Assembly: GCA_038141865.1 (NCBI GenBank)
Contig: JAYQIX010000006.1
Location: 20,532-84,531 of the forward strand
DNA: 64,000 nt
Direction of reading: 5' to 3'
Source of the DNA: Gammaproteobacteria bacterium
GTDB taxonomy: Bacteria > Pseudomonadota > Gammaproteobacteria > Magnimaribacterales > D2472
The position numbers were made by a program, and so were the translations under genes. Below the pieces are notes generated by a model. That model was not told the origin of the DNA, did no database searches, and was given only the letters and a program-made list of their open reading frames with translations. Position 1 is the stretch's first letter; each line of letters starts with the position of its first letter. Shown here one piece after another: positions 1-29,429 of this stretch.

Positions 1-630
1 TTGACCAAAAAAGAAAAGTCTGAAGAAGATGGCTTATCTCCCAGCAAGAAAGGACTTATTGATAAATGCGCTTCCATTAACTGCAAAAACCTTTTATAGC
101 TTAAATCAATAAGTTCAGCAGTCTCATCATTTGAGCCAACAACCCACAATCTTTCTATCTGCCTATTAGCAAAAAATTCTTTATATTTAGCATGCAATGC
201 ATCTTGGAGTATTTATTCCCATTTCAACCAAAGGAAGAATTGTTCCGGCAACATCAGCATCTTCTTCAAAGTACCATCTATAGTGAAACATATATTTTGT
301 TACCCATTCATCTCCAAAATCTTCAAGCAAATAATTTATAAAAGCCAGAGCAGGATCCTCTGGGATTATTTTTCTATTTGGATATTCATTTTCTAACCTT
401 CTTATTATTGGAGTAGAGTCAGTAGTTGCAACAAGCTCATCGTTAGCATCCTTTAATAAGATTGTTGGTAGTAAAATGGGTTTTGGTGGTTCAATACCAA
501 GCTTGGCAATTTTTCTAGCTATATCGCCAAAATATACCGTATAGGGAATATGTCTATATCTAAATACTGACAACATTTTTTGTGTATATGGAGAAGGGGT
601 TCCGCCAAACACTTTAATTTTTTCAGTCAT
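1..630 (-). CDS. Glutathione S-transferase family protein (runs off left edge; apparent frameshift near 205)
   Basis: N-terminal SPY motif, cis-Pro region and DSTPII; an alternative frame continues DALHAKYKEFFANRQIERLWVVGSN...PFLLGDKPSSSDFSFFGQ (GST C-terminal domain) to position 1. Confidence 0.85.
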
Positions 631-641
631 AGTTTTAGTTC

Positions 642-1739
642 CTATATTTTTACAATTATCCCCTCATTAGGATTTATGTCTCCAGCAATAAATCTTTCAT
701 ACGTTGAGAGAAAATTATTTATTCCATCAATTTCTTTAATAACCATCCAGTCAAGACTTTGAAGAGATCTTGCTTTCATAAACTCATTGGTTCTTTGACT
801 ATAGCCTTCGTAGCCCCAATCTTTGAATCTTTTTTGAATATGAGCAGGGGCAAAGAAAAACTCTGTTCTATCCCTTAACATTGCCTGACCTAATGCATCT
901 TCTGCTATAACCTCATTATCCCAATGAGTCATCCCAACTGTAAGACACTTGAGCATGTTGTCTCCAAGAGAACCATGGAGAGTTCCAAGAACTTCACGAC
1001 TTCCAGCCATATCAACCATTACAGTGCTTAGATCATTTCTAACAGATGATAGATCATCGTAAGTAACAATTTGATCATAACAATTTAGCTTCTCTACAAA
1101 AGCTAAATTTTTATGTGAAGTAATACCAACAACACTAGGAGTATTTGAGCTCTCTTTAAGTCCTTGGGCGACACCAATTGCAGTTTTGCTTGAAGCACTA
1201 ATAACAAGAATTTGATCAGCGCCATAAAAAGATTGATCTTCCATTGCATCGCATAAGCAAAAGGAGGTTATGTGCAGTGGGAATAGTAGTGACCTAATAT
1301 TATCAGTAGCATCATCATAATCAGGATCCCCTGAAAGTCTTACATAATTGTTATATACAGCAGGCAATTCTTTGCGGTGATCTTTGCCATCAGTAAAACC
1401 TTGATCAGTTATTTTTATGGGATTTAATTGCAGGCGATCTGATGGAGGAAAGTAACCAAATAATCTTTCTCCAATACTTATCTCTCTTAAGTTAGACTCT
1501 ATAACTCTTGCAAAACCCCATACCGGAACAGATCCCCAATTATTCTCTGGGTCCTTGGTAGTTTTAAAGAATTGCCAATATCCAATGGTATCTCCAGCAA
1601 CAGCATAAGTCACATTATTGGTAGTAAATGCAAAATTCTCTATAGAGACAATAATTTCATTATTACCAATTTCTGGGTCTGACGACTCAACAATTCTAGT
1701 TGTAGTTATATCATTTTTTAGGGTTTGAAGTTGTTTCAA
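642..1739 (-). CDS. DUF2855 family protein (MDR/enoyl-reductase-like architecture)
   Basis: FAFTTNNVTYA, YWQFF, PVWGFA, SASSKTA, FFFAP motifs typical of DUF2855. Confidence 0.8.
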   Translation of the reverse strand: MKQLQTLKNDITTTRIVESSDPEIGNNEIIVSIENFAFTTNNVTYAVAGDTIGYWQFFKTTKDPENNWGSVPVWGFARVIESNLREISIGERLFGYFPPSDRLQLNPIKITDQGFTDGKDHRKELPAVYNNYVRLSGDPDYDDATDNIRSLLFPLHITSFCLCDAMEDQSFYGADQILVISASSKTAIGVAQGLKESSNTPSVVGITSHKNLAFVEKLNCYDQIVTYDDLSSVRNDLSTVMVDMAGSREVLGTLHGSLGDNMLKCLTVGMTHWDNEVIAEDALGQAMLRDRTEFFFAPAHIQKRFKDWGYEGYSQRTNEFMKARSLQSLDWMVIKEIDGINNFLSTYERFIAGDINPNEGIIVKI

Positions 1740-1741
1740 AG

Positions 1742-2164
1742 TTATTTTCCAGTTTCAATTGACTCAATGTTGAGTTGACCAGCAAGCCCAGCAACCCTAT
1801 GTTTATGACTTTCCATATATTCAGGACTTGTAATCATTTTAAGCATAGCTTTTTTACTTGGATATGTTGCTATAGCGACTGCATCCCATAACTCTTCAAT
1901 ATCACCAAGCATTAAGCGTGTAATTTCTGCACCAAAGATCCATTTACCTCCAACATTATTTAAGTGCTCTATCACTTCTTTGCCATATATTGCATATGCT
2001 TCTGCTCCAGTCAGACTAGTTTCTCTTCCATCTTCATATTCTGCTTTTTCTTTAAATTTCAGGAGGTTAATCATTGATATTGGCTTATCATCATTTCCTT
2101 CAAGAAATCCATCCATTTGTTCTTTTGTAGGGTGAACACTATTTTTAAATTTTTTATAGTCCAT
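1742..2164 (-). CDS. DUF1330 domain protein
   Basis: PISMINLLKF, G.EAY..Y, WDAVAIATYPS, Y.....HR.AGL motifs. Confidence 0.8.
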   Translation of the reverse strand: MDYKKFKNSVHPTKEQMDGFLEGNDDKPISMINLLKFKEKAEYEDGRETSLTGAEAYAIYGKEVIEHLNNVGGKWIFGAEITRLMLGDIEELWDAVAIATYPSKKAMLKMITSPEYMESHKHRVAGLAGQLNIESIETGK

Positions 2165-2166
2165 AA

Positions 2167-2781
2167 TTACTCTCCAAGAGTGATTGCTTTTTGAAATGCT
2201 GGCCTCGACTCAATATTACTTACATATTTTTTGATATGCTCCATTTCATTTGGAACACAGCCAAGTCTATTTGCCATAAAACATGAATGGCCCAGCATTA
2301 AATCTGCAGCAGAAAAGGCGCCTATCAAGTAATCTTTATCTGCAAGATTTTCATTAACAGGGGCCAAAGATTTAGTTAATAAATTTTGTGCTTGCTTTAA
2401 TACATTTTCATCCCTTCTATCTTGTGGCAACAAAATGGTCTGAACAACTATTTGATTCATTGGTGGCATAACCATTCCTTCACAATAATGAAACCATTGC
2501 AGATAGTAAGGAAAATTAATTGAACTTGATTCAGGTTTTAACCCGCCATCTTTGTAACGTTCAAGCACGTATTGAATAATAGCTCCAGATTCAAATATTG
2601 ATACATCTCCATCTTCTAACACTGGAACTCTGCCCAACGCATGTCTTGCTCTATGTTCTGGTGATTTAAGGCCTTCTTTTGTAAAGGGCATAATATTAAC
2701 TTCATACTCTAACCCCAATTCTTCTAGCAACCATATAATTCTCCCGGCTCTTGTGCCAGGAGTGAAATGAACCTTAAGCAT
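2167..2781 (-). CDS. Glutathione S-transferase (GTT1-like N-terminus)
   Basis: R..RIIWLLEELGL, LGRVPVLED, IFESGAI, YLIGAFSAAD. Confidence 0.92.
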   Translation of the reverse strand: MLKVHFTPGTRAGRIIWLLEELGLEYEVNIMPFTKEGLKSPEHRARHALGRVPVLEDGDVSIFESGAIIQYVLERYKDGGLKPESSSINFPYYLQWFHYCEGMVMPPMNQIVVQTILLPQDRRDENVLKQAQNLLTKSLAPVNENLADKDYLIGAFSAADLMLGHSCFMANRLGCVPNEMEHIKKYVSNIESRPAFQKAITLGE

Positions 2782-2794
2782 AAATTCCCCCTTT

Positions 2795-3478
2795 TTATTT
2801 TTTTACCATTTTTTGTGCATTTTTTATAAATTCTTTTTTATCCTTATCATTTTTTAAAATGCTCTCTCGATCAACTGGTACTTTAATGCCCTTGAGCATT
2901 CCAGGCTGTTCATACATTTTATTTTTCCAATTATCGAGATGTGTTAATCCCTCTATAGATACTCCTGACCAGTTATGTGTCCTAACCCAACACCAGTTTG
3001 CAATATCTGCAATTGAATACTCTCCTGCAATCCATTCATTAGTTGAAAGTTGTTTATCTAATACCTCAAAAAGCCTTCTAGATTCATTTTGATATCTATC
3101 AATTGCCGGTTGTATTTTTTCTGGGAAATATCTAAAAAAAACATTTGCTTGACCCATCATTGGCCCAATTCCTCCCATTTGAAACATTAGCCATTCAACA
3201 ACTTTAGCTCTTCCTTTCACATCATTTGGAATAAGTTTTCCAGCTTTTTCAGCAAGATAGAGCATAATTGCTCCTGATTCAAAAATTGATAGATCATCAT
3301 TATCTGTATCAACAATAGCCGGTATTCGACCATTAGGACTTATTTTAAGAAAATCTGATTTGAGCTGTTCGCCTTCAGCAAGATTAATTGCATGAACCTC
3401 ATATGGCATTTCTAATGCCTCAAGCAGACATGAAACCTTATGACCATTTGGAGTAGATGAAGTATATAGGTGAATCAT
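2795..3478 (-). CDS. Nu-class GST (YfcG/YghU-like glutathione-dependent oxidoreductase/lyase)
   Basis: [39 protein letters not shown]. Confidence 0.9.
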
Positions 3479-3482
3479 ATAG

Positions 3483-4576
3483 TTATTCTTTTATGAAGTT
3501 TATTAATATCTTAGAAAGTTGCTTGGGTTTAGTCCATTGAAAAAAATGACCTCCGCCAATATGCTCAGCGCTCTTTGCATTTGGTGCCATTTTAAGAACG
3601 TCTTTTTCAATCCCATTTGTTACAGGATCATCACCTGCAAAAACAGAAAGAAAAGGTTTGTCACTTGTCCTAAAGAATTCTCTTGCTTCTTTTTGTGCAT
3701 TTAATGATTGGTCAGGAATTGTTGGAACTTGGCTTGGCATAGCCCTTGGCCCCATTTTGTAGGACGCATCAGGAAAGGGGGCTTCATATGCTTTCATCAG
3801 ATCATTATAAAAAGGCGAAATTTTCTCTAAACCGAGTCTTTGTAAGAGATAATGAATAGAAGCAGCAAGATTTGATTTAAAAGGCCTTCTCCATCATTGT
3901 TGAGTTGAGCATACCAATTGGCAAATTTTTAGTATCCCATGTAAATTTCTGCCAATACATAAATTTTGTAGCCATATGATTTCTTCTATTTTTCTCGCCA
4001 CTTAGACTGTTATCATCCATTTTTTTAATAACTTTCATCATTGAAAATAGAGTAATTTTTTTGTTAGATGCTCTAAATGCTTTCACTTCATCAATTACTT
4101 CCTGAGGAGTATTTGGATTATAAGGAAGCCCAGTGTTACCCATAGCTACTTTAACAAACCTATTTGGATCTGCAGCAATCATTCTTAAACCAATTAATCC
4201 TCCCCAATCTTGACCAAAAAAAGTAAGATTTTGAAAATCATTTTTTTTCAACCATGCCCCCATCCAGTCAACTTGATTTTGATATGAGTAATCCTCCCTA
4301 GCTGCAGGCTTATCTGATTTTCCATAACCTATTAAATCAGGAGCAATGACTCTTATGCCTGCTTCATTTAAAATGGGGATCATTCTTGAGTACAAATAAC
4401 TCCATACAGGCTGTCCATGCATTGCTAAGAGAATTGGGCCGTCTTCTAGGACCCTCATCTATATGATGAACCCTTAATTCAGTTCCATCTTTGGCTGTTA
4501 TATTTGTATATACAGGTTCATATGGATAGCCATTTAGATTTTCGAATTGTGAATCTGGAGTTCTTAGTACTTTCAT
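3483..4576 (-). CDS. Haloalkane dehalogenase family alpha/beta hydrolase (HLD-I/DhlA-like), split by two apparent frameshifts
   Basis: Three ORF pieces join: LRTPD..F..L.GYPY...HHIDEGP; [16 protein letters not shown] nucleophile elbow; [12 protein letters not shown] acid, GGGHFFQ catalytic His. Confidence 0.85.
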
Positions 4577-5206
4577 TTATATATCTCCGTTTGATTTCAT
4601 GCGAATAATAAGATCATCAAATTTATCCTGCCCAAAAAAATACTCATCCTTATAAACACAAAGAGGCACGCCATGATGTCCGGCTCCTAATTGATCTTCT
4701 TGGTTTTGTTTGATTTGCTCAATTAATGCGCCTTCATTATTTTTTATACTCTCTCTAATCTCATAAAGCTCAATTCAAATTCAGATAAAATTTCAACTAG
4801 ATGCTCGTTGTATTCCAATTTTTTACTGACCAAATTTTTGTTGAAAGCTTGTATGCAAACTCTAACCCAAAACCTCGGTTAGACATTTCTTGGCCCATGT
4901 GACATATATCATAGATATAAGGCTGATCTTTTGAAATTTTTCCAGTAAAAATATTTGTTTAATTGGATCAGGCTTAATTGGCCAATTTAAAGGCATATTT
5001 AAGTTGAGCCTTTTTCTTGAAAAATCTGACATCATAGACAGAAAGAAAAAAATATTTTTCTTATCAAACCATTCAGGCATCCTAATGGCTATTGGATAAC
5101 CAATTTAAAATTTATATTAATATTTGATTCATTTTTAAAGTTTCAACATTCTAGGAAGAATCAAATACGAATAAGGGCTTCTGTAAGAAAAATATAAGTC
5201 AATCAT
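4577..5206 (-). CDS. Kappa-class GST / 2-hydroxychromene-2-carboxylate isomerase (DsbA family), multiply frameshifted
   Basis: Manual translation: MIDLYFSYRSPYSYL at the start with AAGGAG RBS; GHHGVPLCVYKDEYFFGQDKF at the end; stop abuts the dehalogenase ATG. Confidence 0.8.
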
Positions 5207-5224
5207 TTTTAGCTCCTTTACACA

Positions 5225-6868
5225 TTAATTTGGCCAGAAGACTAATTCATCGCCTTCTTCATATTCCGTTTGCGGCTTATCTATTACAACTGGCATAAAA
5301 ACTGATTGAGGCCATGATGGCTCTGGTAGTGAATTAATATGCGTATTAAGTTTTTCATGCAACAAACTTTTCATCGCAATCTCAGTCATCGCAAGATTAT
5401 TTGATTCATAAGGGTCAACCTTAAGGTTATATAAGTACTCTCGCTCTTCAGGATATTTTGATCTCATTAATTTCCAATCTTTATGAATGATTGCTTGATA
5501 AGTTGCATTTTTCCAATAGAGGGTTTCATGAGGTTCGCCAATAATCTCATTAGTTAAATATGGAATTAGGTTTACACCATCAATTTTGATGTCTTTTGGA
5601 GGTGCGATATTTGCTGCGCCTAAAATAGTACTAAAAATATCAGTGTGGTGTATTCTTTTTTCATATTGCATATTTTGTTTTATCTTTGCAGGCCATTTTG
5701 CAAAGAAGGGTATATGCATTCCACCCTCAAAATGAGTAAGCTTCCATCCGCGATAGGGTTTATTAATATTATCAAGCCCTATATATCCAGCACCACCATT
5801 ATCAGATGCAAATATTATTAAAGTATTTTCAGTCAAACCATTTTCTTCTAAGGCACTTACAATTCCTCCTACAGATCTATCTAAAGCCTCAATCATTCCC
5901 GCATATACCTGAAGGTCATGATTTTTCATATCATGATGTTTTTCATAGTCTTTTTTTAAAGATTGAAGAGGATTGTGAGGTGCAAAATGTCCAAGATATA
6001 AAAAGAAAGGCCTATCTTTATTGTTATTAATTACTTTTATAGCTTCCTCAGTGTAGTAATCAGTTATATATCCACCAGGTTCGAATGGCTCACTTCCATT
6101 GAAGCTAGCTGCAAACTGAGATGATGCCCAAATCATATCTTCTACAGAAGAATCAATTTTTGCATTAACAATATCAGGATGGTTTTTTGGAAAATATAAA
6201 CTGCTATTAAGCATAAGGCTATCATCAAAGCCTTGATCATTGGGCCTCATCCCATCTGAAAATCCACCCAGATGCCATTTTCCAATATGTGCGGTGTAGT
6301 AACCATTCTCTTGAAGCATTTCTGCAATAGTTATTTCTTTATTCGGAAGGCCTCCAACAGTCAAACCAACTTCATCCCATTGAGTATCTTCTAGATTAAT
6401 AGTTGCAAGCTTCCCATCTCTTCTTAGGAGATTCATAATTCTTGCAGCTTGAGCAGGATAAGGAGTAAATTCAAATCCATATCTACTTGAATATCTTCCA
6501 GTCATTATCGCTGCTCTCGAAGGAGAACAAACTGGGCTAGCGGCATACCCATTTAGAAATGCAACACCTTCTCTTGCTAGGCTATCTATGTTTGGTGTTA
6601 ATAATGAGCCATCAGCTGCGCCACCGTTATAATAGGAAACATCATTAAAACCCAAATCATCAGCTAATATTAAAATAATATTTGGCCTGTCACTATTTTC
6701 ATTCAGATCTGCAACTGGCCATATTATTTCTCTATTCTCTGCAATAGGATTATTTATATTTATTGCAATAGGAAGAAGAGTAAGAGCAACCTCTCTTTTA
6801 AAATTCCATAAAAATAATACAACTAGTAAGCAGATTACTAAAAAGATTCTTAGCTTTCTTATTTTCAC
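5225..6868 (-). CDS. Formylglycine-dependent sulfatase with N-terminal membrane anchor/signal
   Basis: RPNIILILADDLG, CSPSRAAIMTGRY, GKWHLG, SDNGG. Confidence 0.93.
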   Translation of the reverse strand: MKIRKLRIFLVICLLVVLFLWNFKREVALTLLPIAININNPIAENREIIWPVADLNENSDRPNIILILADDLGFNDVSYYNGGAADGSLLTPNIDSLAREGVAFLNGYAASPVCSPSRAAIMTGRYSSRYGFEFTPYPAQAARIMNLLRRDGKLATINLEDTQWDEVGLTVGGLPNKEITIAEMLQENGYYTAHIGKWHLGGFSDGMRPNDQGFDDSLMLNSSLYFPKNHPDIVNAKIDSSVEDMIWASSQFAASFNGSEPFEPGGYITDYYTEEAIKVINNNKDRPFFLYLGHFAPHNPLQSLKKDYEKHHDMKNHDLQVYAGMIEALDRSVGGIVSALEENGLTENTLIIFASDNGGAGYIGLDNINKPYRGWKLTHFEGGMHIPFFAKWPAKIKQNMQYEKRIHHTDIFSTILGAANIAPPKDIKIDGVNLIPYLTNEIIGEPHETLYWKNATYQAIIHKDWKLMRSKYPEEREYLYNLKVDPYESNNLAMTEIAMKSLLHEKLNTHINSLPEPSWPQSVFMPVVIDKPQTEYEEGDELVFWPN

Positions 6869-8080
6869 TTAGCTGACAAAGATCTCATAGTTAATTTTGC
6901 CAATTGAGACATATGCACCTCATCAGGTCCATCAGCAATTCTGCAGAATCTACTTGTTGTAAAAATATGAGCCAATGGGGTGTCTTGACATACTCCCATG
7001 CCACCAAATATCTGAATTGCTCGACTTGAAACATCCTCACACATTTTAGGAGCTACAATTTTTAGCATAGAGATATAATCTCTTGCAGCGTCTATTCCGT
7101 ATTTATCCATTTTTTCTGCAGAAGCAAGAACTAACAAACGGCACTGTTCAATATCACATCTACTTCTTGCTATTTCATGTTGAACACTGGTTTTTTTACT
7201 TAATGCCTCACCGAAAGCAACTCTATTTTGAGCTCTCTCACACATTAACTCCAATGCTCTCTGCGCCATACCCACAAACATCATTGCATATTGGAATCTA
7301 CCAGGGCCCAATCTGCCTTGGGCAATTTCAAAACCCTTTCCTTCACCCAATATCAAATTAGATGCTGGAACACGAACATTCTTAAAAACCACATCACCTT
7401 CACCGCCAGGGGAATGATATTCACCAAATGCTCTAAGAGCTCTAGTTATCTCATCCTTCAGCATCAGTTGGAACTATTATTGTAGAGTGCTGTTGGTGTC
7501 TTGAATTCTCTGGATTAGATTTCCCCATCACAAGCATAAACTTACATTTGGTAGTAATGACATTTGTAGTCCACCATTTTTTCCCATTCAAAATATATTC
7601 GTCACCATCTCTGGTAATTTCTAGTTCCATATTTGTTGCATCTGAAGATGCTACATCAGGCTCAGTCATTGCATAAGCTGATCTAATTTCTCCAGCAAGT
7701 AATGGTTCAAGCCATTCTTTTTGTTGTTCAGGTGTACCATATTTTGCTAAAACTTCCATATTGCCCCTATCAGGAGCATTGCAGTTAAATATTTGTTGAG
7801 ACCATGCAGCTTTTGACATAGTTTCAAATAAACCTGCGATTTCAAGATTATTAAGACCTGGGCTCCAGGGTTTATATTCTTCTGGTAAAAATAGATTCCA
7901 TAAACCTTGCTTTCTAGCTTCTTCTTTTAATCCTTCATACCATTCAGGATATTGCCAAAGATTATCTTGGTTGCTGGTGAATTCATCGTAATCATGTTCA
8001 CGTGGGTAGATATGTTCCTCCATGAACCTCTCAAGCTTTTCATTTAATTCCTTTGCTCTCTCACTTACCTCAAAGCCCAT
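6865..8080 (-). CDS. Acyl-CoA dehydrogenase, ACAD10/11-FadE2-LvaC type (apparent frameshift near 7455)
   Basis: GLWNLFLP, FNCNAPDRGNMEVL, AMTEPDVASSDATN, AQGRLGPGR, RIADGPDEVH. Confidence 0.88.
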
Positions 8081-8123
8081 TATTTCCCCCTAAATATACT
8101 TTTAATTTAGTTTAACTTTTAAA

Positions 8124-8197
8124 TAACCTTTTTAAAGGTTAATTTCTTATAAGCAACTTTGCAAAATTGCTTTTCTTTAGTATTTTAAAAAGCAATT
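8124..8197. promoter_or_regulatory. Inverted repeats in the divergent promoter between the acyl-CoA dehydrogenase operon and the SDR
   Basis: TAACCTTT-TT-AAAGGTTA (8124-8141) and AAGCAACTTTGCAAAATTGCTT (8151-8172). Confidence 0.4.
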
Positions 8198-8225
8198 CAT
8201 AATTTCAAAAATGTATAATTGATTT

Positions 8226-8940
8226 ATGAAAAATGTTGCAATAATAGGATCTTCAGGAGCAATAGGAAGAGCATTTCTTGATGCATATATTCAAGATAAA
8301 AATATTTCAAATATTTACTCAATCTCAAGAACTGAAGTTAAGTCAAAAGATGAGCGTATTACCAATATAAATATAGATATAACAGATGAGGCTAGTGTTA
8401 AGGCTGCTGCATCCAAGATAGGAGATAATAGCCTTGATAGGCTTATTGTTGCAACTGGAATACTGCATACTGAATTATTTGGCCCAGAAAAGAGTATCAG
8501 AGATATAAAGATTGAAAATTTTATTCAAATTTTCTCAGTAAATACATTTGGCCCAGCATTAATTGGAAAATATTTTCTTCCTCTTATGACAAAAAATAAG
8601 AAAAGCGTAATAGCCTTTTTAAGTGCCAGAGTTGGAAGTATTTCAGATAATAAACTTGGAGGCTGGTATTCTTACAGAGCAAGTAAAAGCGCTCTTAATC
8701 AAATTATTAAAAATTTCAGCATCGAGGCAAAAAGAACGAACTCCTAGCGGGATTATTATTGGCCTTCAGCCAGGTACAGTTAAAAGTAAATTAAGCGAGC
8801 CATTCCAAAAAAACGTTAAAAAGGGTAAATTATTTCTTCCTGAGGATAGCGTTACCAATCTAACAAAGGTTGTTGAAACTGTTATGCAAAACGATAGCGG
8901 CAAAATGTTTGACTGGGAAGGTAAGGAAATTCGACCATAA
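8226..8940 (+). CDS. CsgA (C-factor)-like short-chain dehydrogenase/reductase (apparent frameshift near 8740)
   Basis: GSSGAIG Rossmann motif, SARVGSISDN.LGGWYSYRASK, then GLQPGTVKSKLSEPF in the shifted frame. Confidence 0.88.
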
Positions 8941-8972
8941 AAAAACCCGGTATAAAACCGGGTTTATTTTTT
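8938..8972. terminator. Bidirectional intrinsic terminator between the SDR and proteorhodopsin
   Basis: AAACCCGGT-ATAAA-ACCGGGTTT stem flanked by A and T tracts. Confidence 0.85.
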
Positions 8973-8983
8973 AACTTAATAAA

Positions 8984-9724
8984 TTAAGTACCTTGTGATT
9001 CAGTCACAGCTGCATGCCATATGATTAAACCAAATAGAATTTTGTTAACAAAGTCAGCAAAATTGTAAATGATATTCAATGAAGCAGGGTTAGTATCACC
9101 TAACAAGTGACCAAATACATATCCTAATGGATAAACAGCCCAACCAACAATGATGATCCACATCATAGTGTTATAGGCAGTCTGAACAGCAGGGCTAGCT
9201 TGCTTAGCAGCAACTCCGCCTTCACCAGAATATAGGACTTGAATCATATATAGCCAAGCTAACATGGCAATGACAAATGCAACCATTGCATTCATATTTC
9301 CAGCTTCACCAAGGTAACCGAAGATAAGCATAACTAGCGAACCAACAAATAACTTAGTAAAGAGAGAGCTTGCTACATTTGTTACAGCTCTAAGAATTAG
9401 ATAGAACTCAACAATTAGCAATGGAACGGTTAATAACCAATCAATATATCTGTATACGATAGGTGATGGCTGAGTATCTACCCATACACCTCTCATGTAC
9501 ATGTAATGCCAGAAAGCAATACCTGTTACAAGACCTGATACAGTTAATGATGTTTTCCATTTGGAACTTACGTTATCTCTTTCAACGAAGAAGAAGACTG
9601 TTGCAGCCAATAGGGCGGCTGTTACTAGCCAAAAAGAAACGCCAGTCATGTCATCAGCTGCTAAGTCCCCCGCTGCAAAAGATGGCATAACCATAAGTCC
9701 GGTCAACATTAATAAATATTTCAT
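8984..9724 (-). CDS. Proteorhodopsin, green-absorbing, DTE proton pump
   Basis: Signal peptide; FWHY (H75), RYIDWLLTVPLLIVEF (D97, T101, L105, E108), ADFVNK (D227, retinal K231); GAGGAG RBS. Confidence 0.98.
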   Translation of the reverse strand: MKYLLMLTGLMVMPSFAAGDLAADDMTGVSFWLVTAALLAATVFFFVERDNVSSKWKTSLTVSGLVTGIAFWHYMYMRGVWVDTQPSPIVYRYIDWLLTVPLLIVEFYLILRAVTNVASSLFTKLFVGSLVMLIFGYLGEAGNMNAMVAFVIAMLAWLYMIQVLYSGEGGVAAKQASPAVQTAYNTMMWIIIVGWAVYPLGYVFGHLLGDTNPASLNIIYNFADFVNKILFGLIIWHAAVTESQGT

Positions 9725-9845: not shown

Positions 9846-10430
9846 TTAAGCAAAATCCCCAGATAATGATGAAGAAATATCAGCAGAAATTATAGTTTCA
9901 GGTGACTGGTAGTTTTCATGATCAATACCCATGATTACATTTGAATCATTTTTCCAATCATTAATCATTGATGAGGAAAACTCAAATCTAAGATAATGCA
10001 CAGCTGATGTTTTTGTTTCATCTTCTCTCTCAAGATCTTCGTCAGCAATTGCAAAGACTTTATTATGCCCACTTACTTTTATCCAAACTTTTCTTTCAAT
10101 TCCTTTGAGAATTTTTAGCTTTTCTTTTCTTTCACTAATATTAGGGAATTCAATTAACATGACTGCTTTGAGATTTGTTCCATCAGGAATTAATGGATTA
10201 TAAGCATCTAGTTCCTCCCTGATACCCTCAGCATCAAAAATTTTCTCAATTCTCAACATTTCTTGGATTTGATATTGAATGGTATTTTTATTTTCAAATA
10301 AAAGCACTACATTTTCGCCAATGTATACCTTTCTTGATTTTTTTTCTTCTAGAACTTTTGTCCTAAAAACATCTCTATTTTCTGAATACTCTTCAAGTGT
10401 ATATAAGTCTGATTTATGTAATTTTTCCAT
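9846..10430 (-). CDS. DUF3501 family protein (rubrerythrin-associated)
   Basis: LLFEN..TIQYQIQEMLRIE, ELDAYNPLIP, KTSAVHYLRF. Confidence 0.9.
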   Translation of the reverse strand: MEKLHKSDLYTLEEYSENRDVFRTKVLEEKKSRKVYIGENVVLLFENKNTIQYQIQEMLRIEKIFDAEGIREELDAYNPLIPDGTNLKAVMLIEFPNISERKEKLKILKGIERKVWIKVSGHNKVFAIADEDLEREDETKTSAVHYLRFEFSSSMINDWKNDSNVIMGIDHENYQSPETIISADISSSLSGDFA

Positions 10431-10450
10431 TTTTTATTTTTCCTTTTAAT

Positions 10451-11809
10451 TTATATGCCGTATGCTTTTTTTAATATTGTTACAGGGTGAAGGTTTATTT
10501 CAGTGCTTGGATCTAACGCCTCACCAATGTGTTGAGATGCCATAGGGCAATCAGATGTAAAAACCTGAGGCTCAAATCTTTTAGCTTTTGATACAACAGG
10601 TCGTCGAATTTTTATTGATTTTTCATGAGATTCTACTTTTACAGCATAAGTACCATCATGCCCAGAACACCTTTCAATCATGTCTATAGATGCGCCAGGA
10701 ATCATTGCTAAAATCTCTTTAGTTTTTGGACCAATATTTTGCACTCTCTGATGACAGGCTGCTTGATATGAAATCTTATCGAAGTTATTTTTAAAATTCT
10801 TATTAAAAAGACCCTCTTTTTCTCTTAATGATAGATATTCAAATGGATCAAAGATCTTGCTTTTAACAAGCTGCACATCTTCATCATTAGGAAACATAAG
10901 AGGCAATTCTTGTTTATACATTAAGACGCAAGATGGTATAGGGGCAATTATGTCGTATCCATCTTTAATTGCTTTTACCAGCTGAGGTATATTATATTTC
11001 TTTGCCTCTTCAACACTATCAAGGTCTCCAAGCTCAAGTTTTGGCATTCCACAGCATTTTTCTTTTTCAATGAGTTCAGTTTTAATGTCATTAAATCTCA
11101 ATACTTTAATAAGATCTTCGCCAATATCTGGGGTGTTATAGTTACAATAACATGTCCCAAAAATCATTACTTTTCCAGAAGTTCTATCAGTTGAAGTTTC
11201 TTTAGGGTTAAATTCATCGAGTTTTTTGTATCTTTTCTTAAGAGTATTTGAATCAAATTTTGGCAACGTTGCATTAGAGTGAATGCCTCCTATTTTTTCA
11301 ATTACTTTTCTTGCGGATTTTGATGATGTTACTGTATTAATAGTGACATCAATTAAAGGTATGGATCCATACTTAAAGTTATCGGTTGAGCTTAAAGATT
11401 TGTCTCTTATCCTTTTCTTAATTGGCTCATTATTTTTTTTGAAGTTTGCAGCCTTAGACCTTAGCATTAAATGAGGAAAGTCTAATGCCCATGGATGAGG
11501 CGGAACATATGGACATTTTGTTTGATAACACAGATCACACATATAGCACTCGTCAACTACTTTTTTATAATCTTTCTTATCAACACTATCTATATCATAG
11601 GTTTCAGATTCATCAATAAGATCAAAGAGAGTAGGGTATGCATCACATAGGCTTACACAACGCCTACAACCGTGACATATTTCAAATGTTCTGTAGAGCT
11701 CCTCATCAATTTTGCTTTGATCATAGAACTCAGGATTTTTCCAATCTAAATTATGTCTTGTAGGCGCGTCTACGCCACCTTCTCTTGAAGTATGTATTTT
11801 TTCAGCCAT
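10451..11809 (-). CDS. Rubrerythrin-associated Fe-S oxidoreductase (GlpC/HdrD-like, CCG domains)
   Basis: CHGCRRCVSLC, CYMCDLC..TKCPY, CCGMP, CSGHDG, SDCP; ATG at 11809 preferred over the TTG at 11836. Confidence 0.9.
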   Translation of the reverse strand: MAEKIHTSREGGVDAPTRHNLDWKNPEFYDQSKIDEELYRTFEICHGCRRCVSLCDAYPTLFDLIDESETYDIDSVDKKDYKKVVDECYMCDLCYQTKCPYVPPHPWALDFPHLMLRSKAANFKKNNEPIKKRIRDKSLSSTDNFKYGSIPLIDVTINTVTSSKSARKVIEKIGGIHSNATLPKFDSNTLKKRYKKLDEFNPKETSTDRTSGKVMIFGTCYCNYNTPDIGEDLIKVLRFNDIKTELIEKEKCCGMPKLELGDLDSVEEAKKYNIPQLVKAIKDGYDIIAPIPSCVLMYKQELPLMFPNDEDVQLVKSKIFDPFEYLSLREKEGLFNKNFKNNFDKISYQAACHQRVQNIGPKTKEILAMIPGASIDMIERCSGHDGTYAVKVESHEKSIKIRRPVVSKAKRFEPQVFTSDCPMASQHIGEALDPSTEINLHPVTILKKAYGI

Positions 11810-11816
11810 GGTATTA

Positions 11817-11846
11817 GAAAAGGAGGCTGTTACCAACCTCCTTTAA
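11817..11846 (-). terminator. Intergenic hairpin (partial terminator or mRNA stabiliser) after rubrerythrin
   Basis: mRNA AAAGGAGGUUG-GUAA-CAGCCUCCUUU then UCU; 11-bp stem, GNRA loop. Confidence 0.65.
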
Positions 11847-11853
11847 ATAGAAA

Positions 11854-12270
11854 TTAGACTACTTCGTCTAAAGCTTTTTGGAACCTATTGGCATGAGATC
11901 TTTCTGCTTTAGCAAGAGTCTCGAACCAATCAGCAATTTCATCAAATCCCTCATCTCTAGCATCTTTAGCCATGCCAGGATACATATCAGTATACTCATG
12001 AGTTTCACCAGCGATAGCAGACTTTAAGTTAGATAAAGTATCACCGAATGGTTCTCCAGTAGCAGGGTCGCCACACTCTTCAAGGTACTCTAGATGACCA
12101 TGAGCATGCCCAGTTTCACCCTCCGCTGTTGATCTAAATACTGCTGCTACATCATTATAGCCTTCAACATCAGCTTTTTGTGCAAAGTATAAATATCTTC
12201 TGTTTGCTTGTGATTCACCAGCAAACGCATCTTTTAAATGACCTTCTGTTTTTGATCCTTTCAAATCCAT
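11854..12270 (-). CDS. rbr: Rubrerythrin, aerobic type lacking the rubredoxin domain
   Basis: [39 protein letters not shown] diiron ligands; GGAGG RBS before ATG 12270. Confidence 0.93.
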
Positions 12271-12298
12271 AATTATTCCTCCTAGAATTAATACGTAA

Positions 12299-12363
12299 AT
12301 CATATTGGCAATTTGTATATTTTCAATATGTTTTTTTCTATAATACATATAGGCAATACCTAT
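12299..12363 (-). promoter_or_regulatory. rbr promoter with abutting OxyR-binding site
   Basis: Minus strand TTGAAA-N16-TATGAT (12326-12299); TATG-N7-CTAT-N7-ATAG-N7-CTAT at 12327-12363. Confidence 0.75.
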
Positions 12364-16178: not shown

Positions 16179-18070
16179 TTGGCTAATTCATACGACTCAA
16201 AGGCAATAGAAGTTTTATCTGGTTTAGATCCTGTCAAAAAAAGACCAGGAATGTATACAGATACTAATAATCCAAATCATCTTATCCAAGAAGTCCTTGA
16301 TAACTCAGTGGACGAGGCTCTGTCTGGGCATTGTTCAACTATTAAAGTAAGCATATTTAAAGACGGATTTATTCAAGTCATTGATGATGGCAGAGGGATG
16401 CCAGTAGACATTCATCCGGAGCATAAAGTTTCGGGAGTAGAGCTTATTATGTGCAAACTTCATGCTGGTGCAAAATTTTCAGGTGATGAGTATAATTTTT
16501 CTGGAGGCCTTCATGGGGTAGGAGTTTCAGTTGTTAATGCGCTGTCGAGTGAACTTGAAGTTAAGATAAGGAGAGATTCAAAAGAGCATAGCATTACTTT
16601 TAATGATGGAGAGAAAAAGGAAGAACTTCATCAAATAGGAGAAGTTGGAGCAAGAAATTCTGGGACAACAATCAGGTTTAAGCCTAATAGTTCCTATTTT
16701 GAGACAGCAGAAGTTCAAATAAAACATTTAAAACATCTATTAAAGGCCAAGGCCGTCCTTTGCCCAGGCCTAACAATAGATTTTTTTATGAAAAAAAATC
16801 AGAGCGAATCAAATGGTTTTATGAGGATGGTTTAAGAGGATATTTGGCAGAATCTGCAGAAGGTTTAGATTTAATTCTCGAAGAATCCATTCTTTGTACC
16901 AAGCCTAGTGATATTCAAGAAGTGGAATTTGTAATTAATTGGTCCTCAAAACCATACAAAGATAGGCTTGATGAGACATACGTCAATCTTATACCAACTG
17001 CTCAAGGCGGCTCTCATTTAAATGGCTTTAAATCTGGTTTATTAGATGCAGTTAAAGAATTTTGTGAATACAGAAATTTAATTCCAAAAGGCTTAAAGAT
17101 AAATGCAGAAGATGTCATAGCTAATGCAAGTTTTATCGTTTCATCTAAATTACAAAACCCGCAATTTGCAGGACAGACCAAAGAGCGGCTGGATTCTAAA
17201 GATCATGCATCTTTTGTTTCTAGTACAACAAAGGATGCGCTTAGTATTTGGTTTAATACCCATACCGAAGAGGGAGAAAAGATAGCTGACTTAGCAATTG
17301 CTTCAGCCCAAGTTAGAGCAAAATCATCAAAAGTAGTTGAAAGGAAGAAAACTTTTAAAGGTCCTGCACTTCCAGGCAAGCTCTCAGATTGCAATAGCCA
17401 AGACCTAAATGAGACAGAGTTATTTTTGGTAGAGGGTGACTCAGCAGGAGGTTCTGCTAAACAGGCAAGAGAGAGATCGTTCCAAGCTATCATGCCCCTC
17501 AGAGGAAAAATTCTTAACACTTGGGATTTAGAAAGTTCTGAAATAATTAAGTCCCAAGAGATAAAAAATTTATCAACTGCTATCGGTGTTATGCCTGGAA
17601 ACGATGATCTATCATCATTGAGATATGGAAAAATTTGTATACTGGCAGATGCTGATTCTGACGGTTTACATATTGCAACTCTTTTATGTGCATTATTTTT
17701 AAGACATTACAAAACTCTTGTACAAGAAGGGAGGATTTATGTATCTATGCCGCCTCTCTACAGAATTGATTGCGGAAAAGAAGTTGCCTATGCACTTGAT
17801 GATGCGCAAAAAGAAAGTATTGTAAAACAACTAAAATCTAAAAAAGGTAAGCCAAAAATTAATATTCAGAGGTTTAAGGGGCTTGGTGAAATGAACCCAT
17901 CTCAGCTTAGAGAAACTGTGATGGATCCTAGCTCTAGGCAGCTAGTTTGTCTTTCAATTAGTTCTTCAGATAATGCAAATTCAGTGATGGATTTACTACT
18001 AAGTAAAAAAAGAGCGCCTGACAGAAAAGATTGGTTAGAAAAAAAGGGCTCTCTTGCGGAAATAAATTAA
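16179..18070 (+). CDS. parE: DNA topoisomerase IV subunit B (apparent frameshift in homopolymers near 16781-16798)
   Basis: [59 protein letters not shown]. Confidence 0.95.
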
Positions 18071-23293: not shown

Positions 23294-24603
23294 ATGAGAA
23301 TACATATTCTAGGTATATGCGGGACCTTCATGGGGGGCATAGCACAGATACTTAAAGATTCAGGTCATGATGTTTCAGGTTCTGATATTCAATTTTATCC
23401 GCCTATGTCAGATCAGCTTAAAAGCTCTCATATAGACTTAGTTCAGGGTTACAAAGTAAATGATCTGCCAAAAGCAGATCTTTACATAATTGGAAATGCT
23501 ATGTCTCGAGGAAATGAGTCTGTTGAACATATCTTAGAAAACAACCTCCCATTTAAATCAGGGCCAGACATTCTTGGCGAAATGCTGACAAAAAAAAATG
23601 TCATTTCAATTTCTGGAACACATGGCAAAACAACAACCTCTTATATGCTGTGCCATATTTTTTTAAAACAGGATAGAGATATTGGATATTTGGTTGGTGG
23701 AGTTTCAAGCTCTACAGGTAAATCAGCTTGTCTAGGAAGTGATAATGTATTTATAGTCGAAGCAGATGAATATGATTCTGCTTTTTTTGATAAAAGATCA
23801 AAGTTCATTCACTACAAAACAAATACATTAATAATTAACAATATAGAATTTGATCATGCTGATATATTTAGGGATCTTGATGATATAAAAAAACAATTTC
23901 ATCATCTCATAAAAACAATACCAGGGTCTGGAAATATTATCTATTATGGAGATGATAAGAATTCATATGATGTAGTCAGACAAGGAGTATGGTCAAAAAC
24001 AATTTCTATTAATAAAGGCGATCACCATTTAGATTTTCAAAATAGATTATTAACAATTGATGAAAAAGAATATTCTTAAAAGACCTTCCATTGATTGGAG
24101 AGCATAATCTTAAAAATTATTGTTCTGCAATTCTTGCCGCAAATGTAAATGGTATATCTATAGAAGATTCAATTGAGAGTCTACTTGATTTTAATGGAGT
24201 TAAACGCAGATTAGAAAATAAAGGATCATATTCAGGCGTAAGTATCTATGATGATTTTGCCCATCATCCAACAGCAATTAGAATGACAGCTGACGCACTA
24301 TCTTCACAACATTCAGAGTCAAAAATTTTAGGCATAATAGAATTAGGGTCTAATACTATGTCAGGAGGGTTTCATGGTGATGAATTATTCAATGCTCCTG
24401 GCACCCTCGCAAAGACTATTTGGATAGATCATAAAAGTATTTTGGGGGAAGAGATAGATGAACGATTAGTTTTTAATTCAATTGACTCATCTTTAATTTT
24501 TATCAAAGAGAATATTTGTGATTATGATATTATTTTAATAATGACAAACAAAGACAGCTCTTTGATATATAACCCAATTATTAAACACCTTGAAAAAATC
24601 TAA
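23294..24603 (+). CDS. mpl: Murein peptide ligase (apparent frameshift near 24078)
   Basis: HILGICGTFMGG, GTHGKTTT, EADEYDSAFFDKRSKF, DDFAHHPTAI, SNTM. Confidence 0.93.
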
Positions 24604-26499: not shown

Positions 26500-28335
26500 T
26501 AGATATCGAAGATAGATTTATTGAGAAAAGAATATTTAAAAGTAGATTAATACTTATTTATTTATTCTTTGCATTACTCTTTGCCTTACTTATATATAGA
26601 ACATATTCTTTACAAGTTTATCAGCTTTTCAAGCTATGAGCTTGCTTCAATAGAAAATAAAACAAAGACCGTTTTGGTTCAGCCAACCAGGGGCATTATC
26701 TATGATCGTAATGGCAATATATTGATAAATAACGTTCCAAGTTATGACTTAATTATTCAACCTTCACAAATAACAGATATTCAAGCCTATTTAGATAGAT
26801 TGGGTTCAATAATCTCAATTTCAAATAGAGATAGAGAATATGTATATGAACAATACCCAATTAAATCATCATATAACAGAGAGCTAACAGTTAAGAGGGG
26901 GCTTAGTAATGAAGAAATAGCTAGGTTTGAAGTTAGAAATTATCTTTTTCCTGAAGCCATTATAGATGAAAGATATAGTCGAGAGAGTCAATATCCAGAT
27001 CTATTCTCTCATGTGCTTGGTTATGTTGGAGGAATCCAAAATGATAGGCTCGAAGATGTACTTAATTCGCAGAATAAAAGCCTTGGTGAGACCACTTTCA
27101 AATATGCTAATGGCTATCTAGTTGGTAAAACCGGCATCGAGAGCATCTATGATAATGAGTTAAGAGGCACTTTTGGAGAAAAGGTTTATGAAGTTGATGC
27201 AAGAGGTAAATTTCTTAAACAAATTGACCTAATTGATCCTATAAAAGGAAAGGACTTGGTGACATCTTTAGACCTAGATGCTCAAAAAACTGCTTACGAA
27301 GCAATGAAAGGAAGAAGAGGCGCAGTAGTAGTCGTAGAAATTGAATCTGGATCAATAATAACTTACTTAAGCTCTCCATCTTTTTCAATCAATGAAATCT
27401 CAAATGGAATTTCGAATTCAAATTTTCAGAAATTAGTGGATGATAAAAATAAACCTTTTTTTGATAGAGCCTCACAAGGAAGATATTCTCCAGCTTCAAC
27501 AATCAAACCAGCTATAGGACTTTATGGATTAGAAAATAAAATAATTGACTGGGATTATAAAATTCAAGATCCTGGATATTTTATTCTTCCGGAAGATCAA
27601 AGAGTTTATAGAGGATGGAAAGATGGTGGACATGGTGAAATTAATTTAGAAAGCGCAATAATTGAGAGCTCAAATACTTTCTTTTTTTCTTTAGCATATG
27701 AATCAGAGATAGATGATTTAATTCAACATCTAGCTAATTTTGGGTTTGGAAAAAATGTTTGTTTAGATTGTTTTAATCCAGACAAAGGTTTATTGCCAAG
27801 TCCAGAATGGAAAATGAATAATCTTAACTTTGGATGGTTCAAGGGTGACTCTGTGAATATGGGGGTTGGCCAAGGCTATCTAAGTGCTACTCCAATTCAG
27901 CTTGCATTTTACGGCGCTTTTCTAAGCAATAAAGGATCTCTTGAAAAGCTTTCAATATTGGATATATACAGCAATAAAGATTTTTTAGAGTTGCCTTCAA
28001 ATAATATTTCTGAAGAAGACTGGAATAGGCTTCATGATAGTATGATTGGAGTAATAGAGAGCCCCAAGGGAACTGCAAAGAGGCTAAAGAACCTAAAACC
28101 ATATACGATTGCTGCAAAATCAGGGACCGTAGAATTAGTAAGTCTAGATAGTAAAGAGGATTATGAGTTGGTAAGGCAAGATATTAATAAAAGAGATCAT
28201 GCAATAATGGTGGCGTTTGGGCCAATGCCAAATCCAAAATATGCTGTAAGTGTAGTTATTGAGAACGCAGAAAGCGGAGGATCAGTTGCTGGACCGGTCG
28301 CAGTAAAAGTACTTAACTCATTAATAGATAAATGA
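26496..28335 (+). CDS. mrdA: Penicillin-binding protein 2 (apparent frameshift near 26617)
   Basis: True start MIDIEDRF... with TM helix overlaps the rlmH stop (ATGA); RGIIYDRNG, PASTIKP (SxxK), SSN, KSGT. Confidence 0.93.
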
Positions 28336-29429
28336 AGCAGCTTTCTTTTAAAAGATTTACTGTTTACTTTGATCAGTACCTATTTATTTCCATAACATTG
28401 CTGTCAGTTATGGGTTTATTTTTTCTTTATAGCGCCTCTCAAGGTGATTTAAATGTTGTAATTAAGCAAGCAGTATTTGTTGGATTTGGTTTATGTCTCA
28501 TGTTTGCTCTAAGTCAGCCAGACCCTGATATATATAAAATTCTTTCGTTAATTTTCTTAATAATTTCTTTGCTGCTAGTTGTAATAACGATCCTATTTGC
28601 AAAAGAAATTAATGGTGCAAAAAGATGGCTTGATCTCGGGGTATTTACCCTTCAGCCATCTGAACTAGTGAAAATTGCTCTTCCATTATATTTAGCATCA
28701 TATCTTTTTGAGAAACCAATACCTATTGATTTAAAGAATACTTTTAAAAGTATAGCGATAATAGCAACATGTTTTTTATTAATTGCTAAGCAACCAGATC
28801 TAGGAACAAGCTTAGTTGTTTCTATGGCAGGAATTTATATTTTGTTTTTTGCTGGCTTAAGTTGGAAGTTTATTGGATCTTCTTTTTTGATTTTCATAAT
28901 TTCACTTCCTTTTTTATGGAATAATTTTCTACAACCATTTCAACAACAAAGGATTCAGACATTGCTTGATCCTGGGGCTGATCCTTATGGCAGCGGTTGG
29001 AATATAACACAATCTAAAATCGCAATAGGATCTGGAGGTATTTCAGGAAAAGGCTACACTGATGGATCTCAATCGCATTTAGATTTCCTTCCTGAAACAG
29101 AAACTGATTTCATATTTGCTGTAATCGCCGAAGAGTTTGGGTTTATAGGTATATGCGTTTTGCTATCAATCTACTTTTTTATTTTATTAAGGTGCCTTTA
29201 CTTGGCTTTTAATGCTAGAGATAGATTTTGCAGATTAACCATTGGAGGCCTAAGTTTAATATTTGCCTCAACTCTTTTTATTAATCTTGCTATGGTAACT
29301 GGACTAATTCCAGTTGTGGGCATGCCACTTCCATTAATTAGTAAAGGTGGATCATCGCTATTATCATTCTATATTGCTTTTGGCATTATAATATCCATGG
29401 CATCACATAAAAAATTAATGCAAAGATGA
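28332..29429 (+). CDS. rodA: Rod shape-determining protein RodA
   Basis: GAKRW, QPSELVK, QPDLGT, FLPETETDFIF, GMPLPLISKGGSS. Confidence 0.95.
   Translation: MKQLSFKRFTVYFDQYLFISITLLSVMGLFFLYSASQGDLNVVIKQAVFVGFGLCLMFALSQPDPDIYKILSLIFLIISLLLVVITILFAKEINGAKRWLDLGVFTLQPSELVKIALPLYLASYLFEKPIPIDLKNTFKSIAIIATCFLLIAKQPDLGTSLVVSMAGIYILFFAGLSWKFIGSSFLIFIISLPFLWNNFLQPFQQQRIQTLLDPGADPYGSGWNITQSKIAIGSGGISGKGYTDGSQSHLDFLPETETDFIFAVIAEEFGFIGICVLLSIYFFILLRCLYLAFNARDRFCRLTIGGLSLIFASTLFINLAMVTGLIPVVGMPLPLISKGGSSLLSFYIAFGIIISMASHKKLMQR

Follow-up and report, generated by a model that had tools for sequence, protein, structure and literature searches.

In the hexachlorocyclohexane (lin) genes of Sphingobium, the haloalkane dehalogenase (HLD) LinB, the short-chain dehydrogenase/reductase (SDR) LinC and the glutathione S-transferase (GST) LinD act on one substrate series, and the isoGHIJ genes of Rhodococcus (isoprene) and the styGHIJ genes of Gordonia (styrene) apply GSTs, an SDR-type dehydrogenase and coenzyme A (CoA)-linked steps to an electrophile. 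Double-bond reductases (DBRs) of the PTGR1/DBR type act on alpha,beta-unsaturated carbonyls. The acyl-CoA dehydrogenases (ACADs) ACAD10 and ACAD11 and the P. putida proteins LvaA and LvaC process 4-hydroxy acids via 4-phosphoacyl-CoA; in ACAD10/11 the 4-phosphate is bound by H634, R637 and R626, whose replacement abolishes the activity of the ACAD domain, as reported in PMC12440821. A gene cluster with members related to several of these systems occupies positions 1-8080 of a 64,000-nucleotide stretch of SAR86 DNA (the window, i.e. the whole stretch analyzed; GenBank assembly GCA_038141865.1, contig JAYQIX010000006.1, designated here G000:C6:20532-84531, with G000 being the source assembly).

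The lin genes differ from the SAR86 cluster in being dispersed and directed at a xenobiotic, and they include no sulfatase, ACAD, DUF1330 or DUF2855 gene. The HLD, sulfatase, DUF1330, DUF2855 and ACAD genes of the cluster also have no counterpart in isoGHIJ and styGHIJ, and neither a monooxygenase nor an IsoG/StyG-type CoA-transferase was seen in the SAR86 cluster. The likeness to the latter systems consists of StyI (9qd3) being among the fold matches of one cluster protein, GST_C (TM 0.64-0.66 on the target), a weak IsoI match of 26.6 bits, and an IsoH match of 80 bits for the divergent SDR encoded next to the cluster, both scores lying far under their equivalog thresholds (300 and 350, respectively). 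As far as sequences and structure models allow, we read the cluster as a conserved SAR86 unit whose enzymes would share one substrate class, and assign to this reading a probability of about 0.5. SAR86 bacteria rank with the most abundant heterotrophs in surface ocean water. Despite their very small genome they keep this block of approximately ten genes in three of the four sampled families.

The intact form of the cluster was found in G004, a congener that was used as the reference (93.7% DNA identity to G000 over 49.6 kb). It comprises 11 intact genes separated by no more than 18 bp, which encode, in this order, ACAD (405 aa), sulfatase (547 aa), a DsbA-like protein (210-215 aa), HLD-I dehalogenase (363 aa), GST_A (227 aa), GST_B (204 aa), DUF1330 (140 aa) and DUF2855 (365 aa) proteins, GST_C (345 aa), SDR (262 aa) and an NMO/FabK-like protein (322 aa). 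The first junction is a 4-bp overlap and the following ones measure 3-18, 0, 4, 12, 2, 2, 11, 1 and 5 bp. The gene order in G003 matches that of G004 (tblastn), and the ten genes from ACAD to SDR are also whole in G001.

All long open reading frames (ORFs) listed for positions 1-8080 of the window lie on the minus strand and the block runs on past the left edge, as the earlier note on this DNA had stated from the letters alone. The ACAD gene at its head (6865..8080, minus) belongs to the ACAD10/11 (FadE2-like) clade, "FQYAMM" subtype, with the Pfam ACAD N/M/C domains distributed over two pieces, 7451-8080 and 6865-7464. Next on this strand are an intact S1 (formylglycine-type) sulfatase gene (5225..6868; 547 aa, with an N-terminal hydrophobic anchor; Pfam Sulfatase, 191 bits), a broken gene for a DsbA-fold protein resembling 2-hydroxychromene-2-carboxylate (HCCA) isomerase (approximately 4577..5206; 210-215 aa in relatives, intact in G004, G005 and G001) and the gene of an HLD-I haloalkane-dehalogenase-family hydrolase with an enlarged cap domain (3483..4576), which is spread over three frames in the pieces 4364-4576, 3877-4458 and 3483-3797 (Pfam alpha/beta hydrolase). 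Then come four intact genes, those for the YfcG/YghU-like (Nu-like) GST_A (2795..3478, 227 aa) and the generic cytosolic GST_B (2167..2781, 204 aa), both recognized by Pfam GST_N/GST_C, for the DUF1330 protein (1742..2164, 140 aa) and for the DUF2855 protein (642..1739, 365 aa; Pfam DUF2855, 325 bits). The first approximately 210 codons of the 345-aa GST_C occupy 1..630 (GST N-terminal piece at 187-630), and this gene extends about 407 bp to the left of the window, where the remainder of GST_C, an SDR gene and remnants of an NMO-family gene precede a convergent operon.

The order and the block described in the earlier note were thus right, and most of its family assignments agreed with Pfam and NCBIfam, the DUF1330 protein falling just under the Pfam cut-off (22.6 bits versus 23). 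The count of at least nine genes does not apply to intact ones, since the sulfatase, GST_A, GST_B, DUF1330 and DUF2855 genes are the only whole ORFs of the cluster in the window. Overlaps or gaps under 20 bp, also claimed there, are true of the intact G004 cluster; in positions 1-8080 of the window 12 indels, on which that note did not remark, break the frames.

Upstream of the ACAD gene lies a divergent intergenic region of 145 bp (8081..8225), the sole sizeable non-coding gap at the cluster head. One promoter-like site was found in its G004 equivalent (L013 2533-2562). Promoter-like sites were not enriched (37 found, 47.3 expected from shuffled sequences), and the terminator-like sites in the cluster were only two, both weak, on the plus strand and inside coding sequence (total of 6, in comparison to 8.0 expected from shuffles). 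It is likely that 8081-8225 is the promoter region of the cluster, from which the genes would probably be transcribed as a single unit.

Base-level alignment to G004 revealed 13 frame-breaking indels within the genes of positions 1-9000, 12 of which are in 1-8080. A 2-nt deletion at 7452/7453 puts the ACAD gene into two frames, 1-nt insertions at 4445 and 3884 put HLD into three, and GST_C carries indels at 205 (+1) and 12 (-1), with the frame shifted between them and 10 stops if the G000 copy is read in one frame. The DsbA-like gene carries seven indels (4776, 4808, 4956, 5001, 5020, 5099 and 5139) and is left without a long ORF, hence the apparent 650-bp gap at 4577-5224. The divergent SDR has a 1-nt insertion at 8741. 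No indels relative to G004 were present in the sulfatase, GST_A, GST_B, DUF1330 and DUF2855 genes.

These indels are very probably assembly errors because dN/dS is low, intact alleles occur in metagenomes, essential genes are split in the same assembly and most of the changes concern the length of base runs. After frame correction, dN/dS relative to G004 was 0.033 for ACAD, 0.080 for HLD, 0.075 for GST_C and 0.124 for the DsbA-like gene, in comparison to 0.048-0.107 for the intact genes. The corrected products of the broken genes were 96-99% identical to those of G004 at the amino acid level, similarly to the intact ones, and the DsbA-like protein was 95.6% identical despite its seven indels, with no excess of substitutions. 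Nine of the 13 indels were changes in base-run length, as read from the alignment contexts. At 10 of the 13 sites, frame-restoring alleles were among the matches in two to four of the four metagenome runs, which come from four studies; in this survey of contigs the depth includes contigs ending near a site, the matches had soft-clipped loose ends at 4444 and 7453, and sites 12, 5001 and 5099 were not among the matches listed.

In the flanks, three of 45 G004 ORFs were split in G000. They encode leucyl-tRNA synthetase (33873-36282, overlapping ORFs 33873-35369 and 35305-36282, indel at about 35349; one 802-aa ORF in G004), a Mur ligase (23294-24603, in two pieces, indel at about 24077; 436 aa in G004) and a GyrB/ParE-type topoisomerase subunit (16179-18070, in two pieces, indel at about 16787; 630 aa in G004). 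Since a living cell needs these proteins, their splitting speaks for error. The script used for the flanks called GST_C and SDR intact and gave the DsbA-like gene no match above 70% identity, so these three were judged separately. The HLD gene is whole in fragmented assemblies and split in the highly contiguous G000 and G005; in G005 (2 contigs) it is divided into parts of 291 and 90 aa (L015 6170-7263) and the sulfatase N-terminus is cut (L015 3933-5517), at sites differing from those of G000.

The opposite explanation, that the frameshifts are real and the strain is losing the cluster, with ACAD, DsbA-like, HLD, GST_C, SDR and NMO as pseudogenes, seems improbable to us in the light of these data. 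It draws on the distribution of the indels, which are concentrated in a 10-kb region (13 in approximately 10 kb versus three split ORFs in approximately 48 kb of flanks, a density about 20-fold higher), with seven in one 630-bp gene and none in the five genes between, that is in 4.5 kb; random error does not explain such patchiness. Nor can the metagenome table tell whether the alleles of the window itself also occur in nature. To the left of the window the SDR/NMO end is rearranged and incomplete: of the NMO/FabK-like protein no more than residues 25-53 and 201-322 were found (G000:C6:18864-19397), next to a garbled SDR end. If the indels are assembly errors, this garbling is probably a result of the same local assembly problem. 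For users of the genome it means that gene callers will give this cluster as fragments or pseudogenes, and that some of the frame errors hit essential genes.

To follow the cluster among relatives, 41 SAR86 genomes were sampled. DUF2855 was present in 20 of them, and approximately 19 kb was taken around 18 matches. The linkage survey covered 16 DUF2855-anchored loci from three SAR86 families, 13 of them outside the genus of G000; a gene was scored if it lay within approximately 9 kb of DUF2855 and its match covered half or more of the query at 40% identity or higher. HLD and DUF1330 genes were present in 14 loci each, sulfatase and GST_C in 13 each, GST_B in 12, NMO in 11, GST_A in 10, SDR in nine, ACAD in six and the DsbA-like gene in four. 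The eight flanking genes of G004 that served as controls were found in one to six of the 16 loci. As the genomes are kin, these counts describe the loci and do not amount to a statistical test. The NMO-like protein is unusually conserved among the relatives (85-96% identity), GST_C shows a mean column identity of 71% over 13 SAR86 sequences, and two sulfatase types, approximately 46-50% identical, occur at different positions of the cluster in different genera. The core is also carried by a cultured isolate, HIMB1674 (locus L112).

Orthologues of HLD were found in all 41 SAR86 genomes and those of GST_C in 36. A second survey was anchored on GST_C and comprised 58 SAR86 and 22 non-SAR86 loci; 39 of the 58 SAR86 loci had HLD within 8 kb, 33 of them at a distance of no more than 3 kb. 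ACAD orthologues (at least 84% identity) are limited to 10 of the 41 genomes, namely those of genera g1 and g5 and G014, and wherever the contig permits a check they lie within approximately 4 kb of HLD or sulfatase; the fragment in G002 is unplaceable. The order of the genes was reshuffled between genera and their linkage was kept across the three SAR86 families, which means that the linkage has survived rearrangement. Judged by its gene content and position among relatives, the cluster is a real conserved module, with an arrangement beyond chance.

The GST_C family (54-57% identity) also occurs in the 22 non-SAR86 loci, which are labelled mostly Halieaceae, Porticoccaceae or Spongiibacteraceae and have a GC content of 52-55%; the two with other labels may result from mis-binning. 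In six of these loci GST_C has the same ACAD subtype (70-75% identity) 93-1203 bp downstream in the same orientation. That this ACAD is closer to its Halieaceae counterparts than GST_C is (55%) may be due to gene transfer into three SAR86 genera. The other partners were sulfatase in eight, SDR in six, DUF2855 and DUF1330 in four each, GST_A in three and HLD in one. In the three loci that were read closely, genes for an AMP-dependent ligase, an enoyl-CoA hydratase, an NMO-like protein and a DSBA-domain protein were also present. Co-conservation in SAR86 and other marine gammaproteobacteria, which the earlier note had proposed to verify by a neighbourhood survey, was observed for eight core genes in 9-14 of the 16 SAR86 loci and for a part of them in the 22 others. 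The loci L089, L092 and L100 from Halioglobus/Haliea metagenome-assembled genomes contain two or three paralogues of the long GST_C-like protein (347-390 aa), and an anchored metallo-beta-lactamase-fold protein is encoded there beside the ACAD, ligase and DUF2855 genes.

These surveys also bear on another possibility, that the locus is a detoxification island in which independent broad-specificity enzymes are kept together for common expression only and have neither a substrate nor a pathway in common. All the members come from promiscuous detoxification families, membership and order vary by genus (as seen in the lower counts of GST_A, SDR, ACAD and the DsbA-like gene among the 16 loci), a dedicated transporter or regulator is missing, and a high GST copy number is reported across the SAR86 order in PMC11582366. 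Such an island does not account well for a linkage that persists although the genes were repeatedly reshuffled and that is seen again in distant lineages (GC 52-55%), nor for a narrowly distributed ACAD subtype that always accompanies the set. Moreover, the addition of CoA-pathway enzymes in the Halieaceae versions points to catabolism over simple detoxification. We regard the island as less probable than a unit with one substrate class.

The families were assigned to the cluster proteins with the use of Pfam and NCBIfam, folds with AlphaFold models and Foldseek, and look-alikes with the ESM Atlas. The dehalogenase-like hydrolase of the earlier note is a predicted haloalkane-dehalogenase-family hydrolase: the intact G004 orthologue passed the NCBIfam subfamily model PRK00870 (329.1 bits, cut-off 265) and the pieces in the window are 94-96% identical to it. 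Its best solved relatives are 5esr, 6f9o, 4mj3 and DhlA, with a core of approximately 150 residues aligning at 200 bits; we take the entries 5esr, 4mj3, 1edb and 2xt0 to be DccA, DmrA, DhlA and DppA, respectively. Residues D123, W124, W208, D316 and H343 are invariant in all 14 sequences and align with 5esr. By analogy with DhlA they presumably represent the nucleophilic Asp with the adjacent Trp, the cap Trp, the acid Asp and the His. The protein thus resembles described HLD-I dehalogenases in the family model and in the invariant Asp-His-Asp and Trp-Trp pentad. It differs from them in length (363 aa versus approximately 300), about 60 residues being added to the cap domain, the part that forms the substrate pocket, and in the location of its gene amid those for GSTs and a sulfatase.

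The sulfatase carries the CSPSR motif (C-x-P-x-R). Of five genomes searched, four (G000, G004, G001 and G017) gave no other match to the Sulfatase family. The DsbA-like protein of G004 scored 44.6 bits with Pfam DSBA (cut-off 25.6) and begins with YFSYRSPYSYL. An N-terminal Ser-Pro motif and the lack of the redox CxxC are the sign of DsbA-fold Kappa GSTs/HCCA isomerases, and the Atlas neighbours of the protein are named HCCA isomerase (scores 0.95-0.97), in keeping with the earlier assignment. No solved relative at E of 0.01 or less was found for it in the sequence search against solved structures.

In NCBIfam, GST_A came closest to PRK13972, with 182 bits for a cut-off of 332, and to PRK11752, with 173 bits for a cut-off of 325. 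The likeness to Nu-class GSTs, a class named in the earlier note, holds insofar as YfcG and YghU are the closest proteins, and fails at the equivalog level; by these scores GST_A is Nu-like (YfcG/YghU-like), not an equivalog. The nearest solved chains of GST_B are labelled only glutathione transferase (E about 2e-21). The model of GST_C shows the GST fold with approximately 100 extra C-terminal residues, StyI being among the top matches; comparison with solved structures by sequence gave only E above 0.1. The DUF1330 protein has a solved relative in RPA0582 (3dca/3hhl, E 1.8e-24), and the NMO-like protein is FabK-like below the cut-off (259 bits versus 453).

For DUF2855 the sequence profile found no solved relative. 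Its AlphaFold model (pLDDT 86.6) has a two-domain fold of the medium-chain dehydrogenase/reductase (MDR) superfamily, double-bond-reductase type, and the Foldseek top matches were PA1648, plant DBRs, PTGR1/LTB4 12-hydroxydehydrogenase and CurA (E 1e-12 to 7e-16, TM 0.57-0.71). In this model the MDR alkenal/one reductases are therefore the best structural matches of DUF2855, to which they are only 12-16% identical in sequence. An invariant ASSKT (A182-T186), which is not a typical glycine loop, stands where we would expect the glycine-rich nucleotide loop.

The cluster ACAD aligned end to end with the ACAD domain of ACAD11. The chains 8v3u, 8v3v and 2wbi of ACAD11 (401-403 bits) and 4hr3 (374 bits) were the best solved relatives, and the next class reached 137 bits. 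The protein keeps the catalytic Asp (D753; ADGPDEVH) and R626/R631. It differs from the ACAD10/ACAD11 and LvaA/LvaC systems in the motif GRLGPGRFQYAMM, present where ACAD11 has ...IHHCMR, that is YAMM for HCMR with H634 and R637 changed to Y and M, and in having neither a fused nor an adjacent LvaA-like kinase. FQYAMM(F) is invariant in all seven SAR86 loci that hold the cluster ACAD. In the GST_C-anchored set FQYAMMF was found in eight loci, FQYAMTL in two and FQYAMGL in one, and FQYAM(M/G/T) occurs in the Halieaceae/Porticoccaceae copies. Because HCMR is replaced by YAMM, we infer that the cluster ACAD is a member of the ACAD10/11 clade whose pocket no longer binds phosphate; the earlier placement of this protein stands as regards the clade and does not extend to the phosphate-binding motif.

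This change weakens the proposal that products of lipid peroxidation or oxylipins (4-hydroxyalkenals, polyunsaturated aldehydes) enter beta-oxidation through chemistry of the ACAD10/11/LvaC type, after conjugation or reduction and conversion to 4-hydroxyacyl-CoA. It is favoured by the several GSTs, by the closeness of the ACAD to ACAD11 at 403 bits and by the DUF2855 fold, similar to that of PTGR1/alkenal reductases, and it gains from the acyl-CoA ligase and enoyl-CoA hydratase genes of the Halieaceae versions. The same kinds of enzymes form the mammalian route for 4-hydroxynonenal (4-HNE), as described in part in PMC12440821. The DUF2855 fold and the Halieaceae ligase and hydratase thus lend some support to the idea of oxidised lipids as substrates, and with the loss of HCMR its central element is gone: H634 and R637, required in ACAD11 according to PMC12440821, are Y and M in seven of the seven SAR86 cluster ACADs. 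The ACAD subtype is also confined to the 10 genomes mentioned above, and HLD and the sulfatase have no role in such a route, which we consider unlikely. Nothing specific to oxylipins was among the features found.

The search beyond the left edge of the window, where the earlier note had placed a possible LvaA-like APH-family kinase and an acyl-CoA ligase, revealed no CoA ligase and no LvaA-like kinase near the cluster. The sole nearby APH-fold gene encodes a 250-aa ThiK/choline-kinase-like protein, in convergent orientation and within a PnuC/TonB operon, which also argues against 4-hydroxyacyl-CoA chemistry at this locus. The ligase expected as a partner for beta-oxidation was encountered, together with enoyl-CoA hydratase, in the homologous Halieaceae clusters. 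A canonical ACAD10/11-type paralogue with HCMR is encoded on another contig (G000:C2:75690-76937), and an SDR gene followed by a gene for a 353-aa APH-family kinase is present on a third one (G000:C1:121569-123355, kinase 122294-123355). This paralogue and kinase, unlinked to the cluster, are candidates for a true 4-hydroxyacyl-CoA route and could do that job in place of the cluster ACAD.

The convergent operon to the left of the cluster (G000:C6:15461-18851; L013 12908-16346) encodes a TonB-dependent receptor, a PnuC-family transporter and the ThiK/choline-kinase-like kinase, and looks like a vitamin salvage unit (for thiamine or nicotinamide riboside).

Returning to a conserved unit with one substrate class, the core would comprise HLD-I, GST_C, GST_A, GST_B, DUF1330, DUF2855, the S1 sulfatase, SDR and the NMO/FabK-like flavoenzyme, to which the DsbA/HCCA-isomerase-like gene and the variant ACAD are added in the genus of G000. 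Gene content, conserved linkage, family and fold membership, the motif changes and the signature of assembly errors are what was observed; co-transcription, the shared substrate class and each of the following chemical steps are what we infer. The substrates would be small or lipid-like electrophilic organic compounds with good leaving groups or activated double bonds. HLD would remove halide hydrolytically and the exported sulfatase would cleave off sulfate esters, while the GSTs and the DsbA-like protein could catalyse the addition of a thiol, an elimination or an isomerisation. DUF2855, NMO and SDR may reduce or oxidise C=C and C=O bonds, and the ACAD10/11-clade enzyme, with its predicted loss of phosphate binding, may perform a CoA-thioester step.

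Several observations weigh against this reading. The enzymes come from broad-specificity families and could work independently, and the SAR86 cluster contains no regulator, transporter or CoA ligase, as judged from the gene content of the G004 cluster and its left flank. Short gaps are usual in this streamlined genome, e.g. in the runs at 26569-31476, so packing alone is weak evidence. DUF2855, carried by eight of 400 genomes sampled at the class level, had no cluster partner at seven loci of other gammaproteobacterial families. The nearest solved chains of the sulfatase are carrageenan sulfatases of S1_19 (E 4e-70), which act on polysaccharide; it is therefore closest to carbohydrate S1 sulfatases and not to lipid sulfatases, contrary to the sulfated lipids proposed earlier. 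Furthermore, the FGE maturase (PF03781) was found in none of four genomes of SAR86 family f1 (71-93% complete), a radical-SAM maturase not having been searched for; it was present in the single f2 genome.

A bolder and rather doubtful extension of the proposal would be that SAR86 and related oligotrophic marine Gammaproteobacteria possess a glutathione- and CoA-dependent catabolic route that removes leaving groups (halide, sulfate, thiol) from halogenated, sulfated or epoxy aliphatic acids of algae, with the "FQYAM" ACAD as a new functional subtype eliminating a non-phosphate C4 group of acyl-CoA. If the enzymes do share one substrate class, the cluster would constitute a sink, so far not recognised, for dissolved organic matter of a reactive, halogenated or sulfated nature, and the ACAD variant would widen the chemistry of the ACAD10/11 family. 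No published description of the cluster was found, nor any paper that mentions DUF2855 or that names GSTs and a dehalogenase together with SAR86. The words "dehalogenase" and "sulfatase" do not appear in the main text of two SAR86 genome papers, the supplementary tables of which may list such genes, and the literature naming SAR86 together with "haloalkane dehalogenase" contained nothing about the cluster by title or abstract.

On the other side of the intergenic region the divergent SDR gene (8226..8940, plus strand; 237 aa in G004; Pfam adh_short) is split in the window. It was found within 9 kb in five of the 16 relatives' loci, the same as the controls, and is a loosely linked neighbour. 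The proteorhodopsin gene (8984-9724, minus) adjoins it, and linkage of the proteorhodopsin gene to the cluster was seen in only four of the 16 loci. After the proteorhodopsin gene, genes for a DUF3501 protein, a CCG/4Fe-4S protein and rubrerythrin follow at 9846-12348 on the minus strand.

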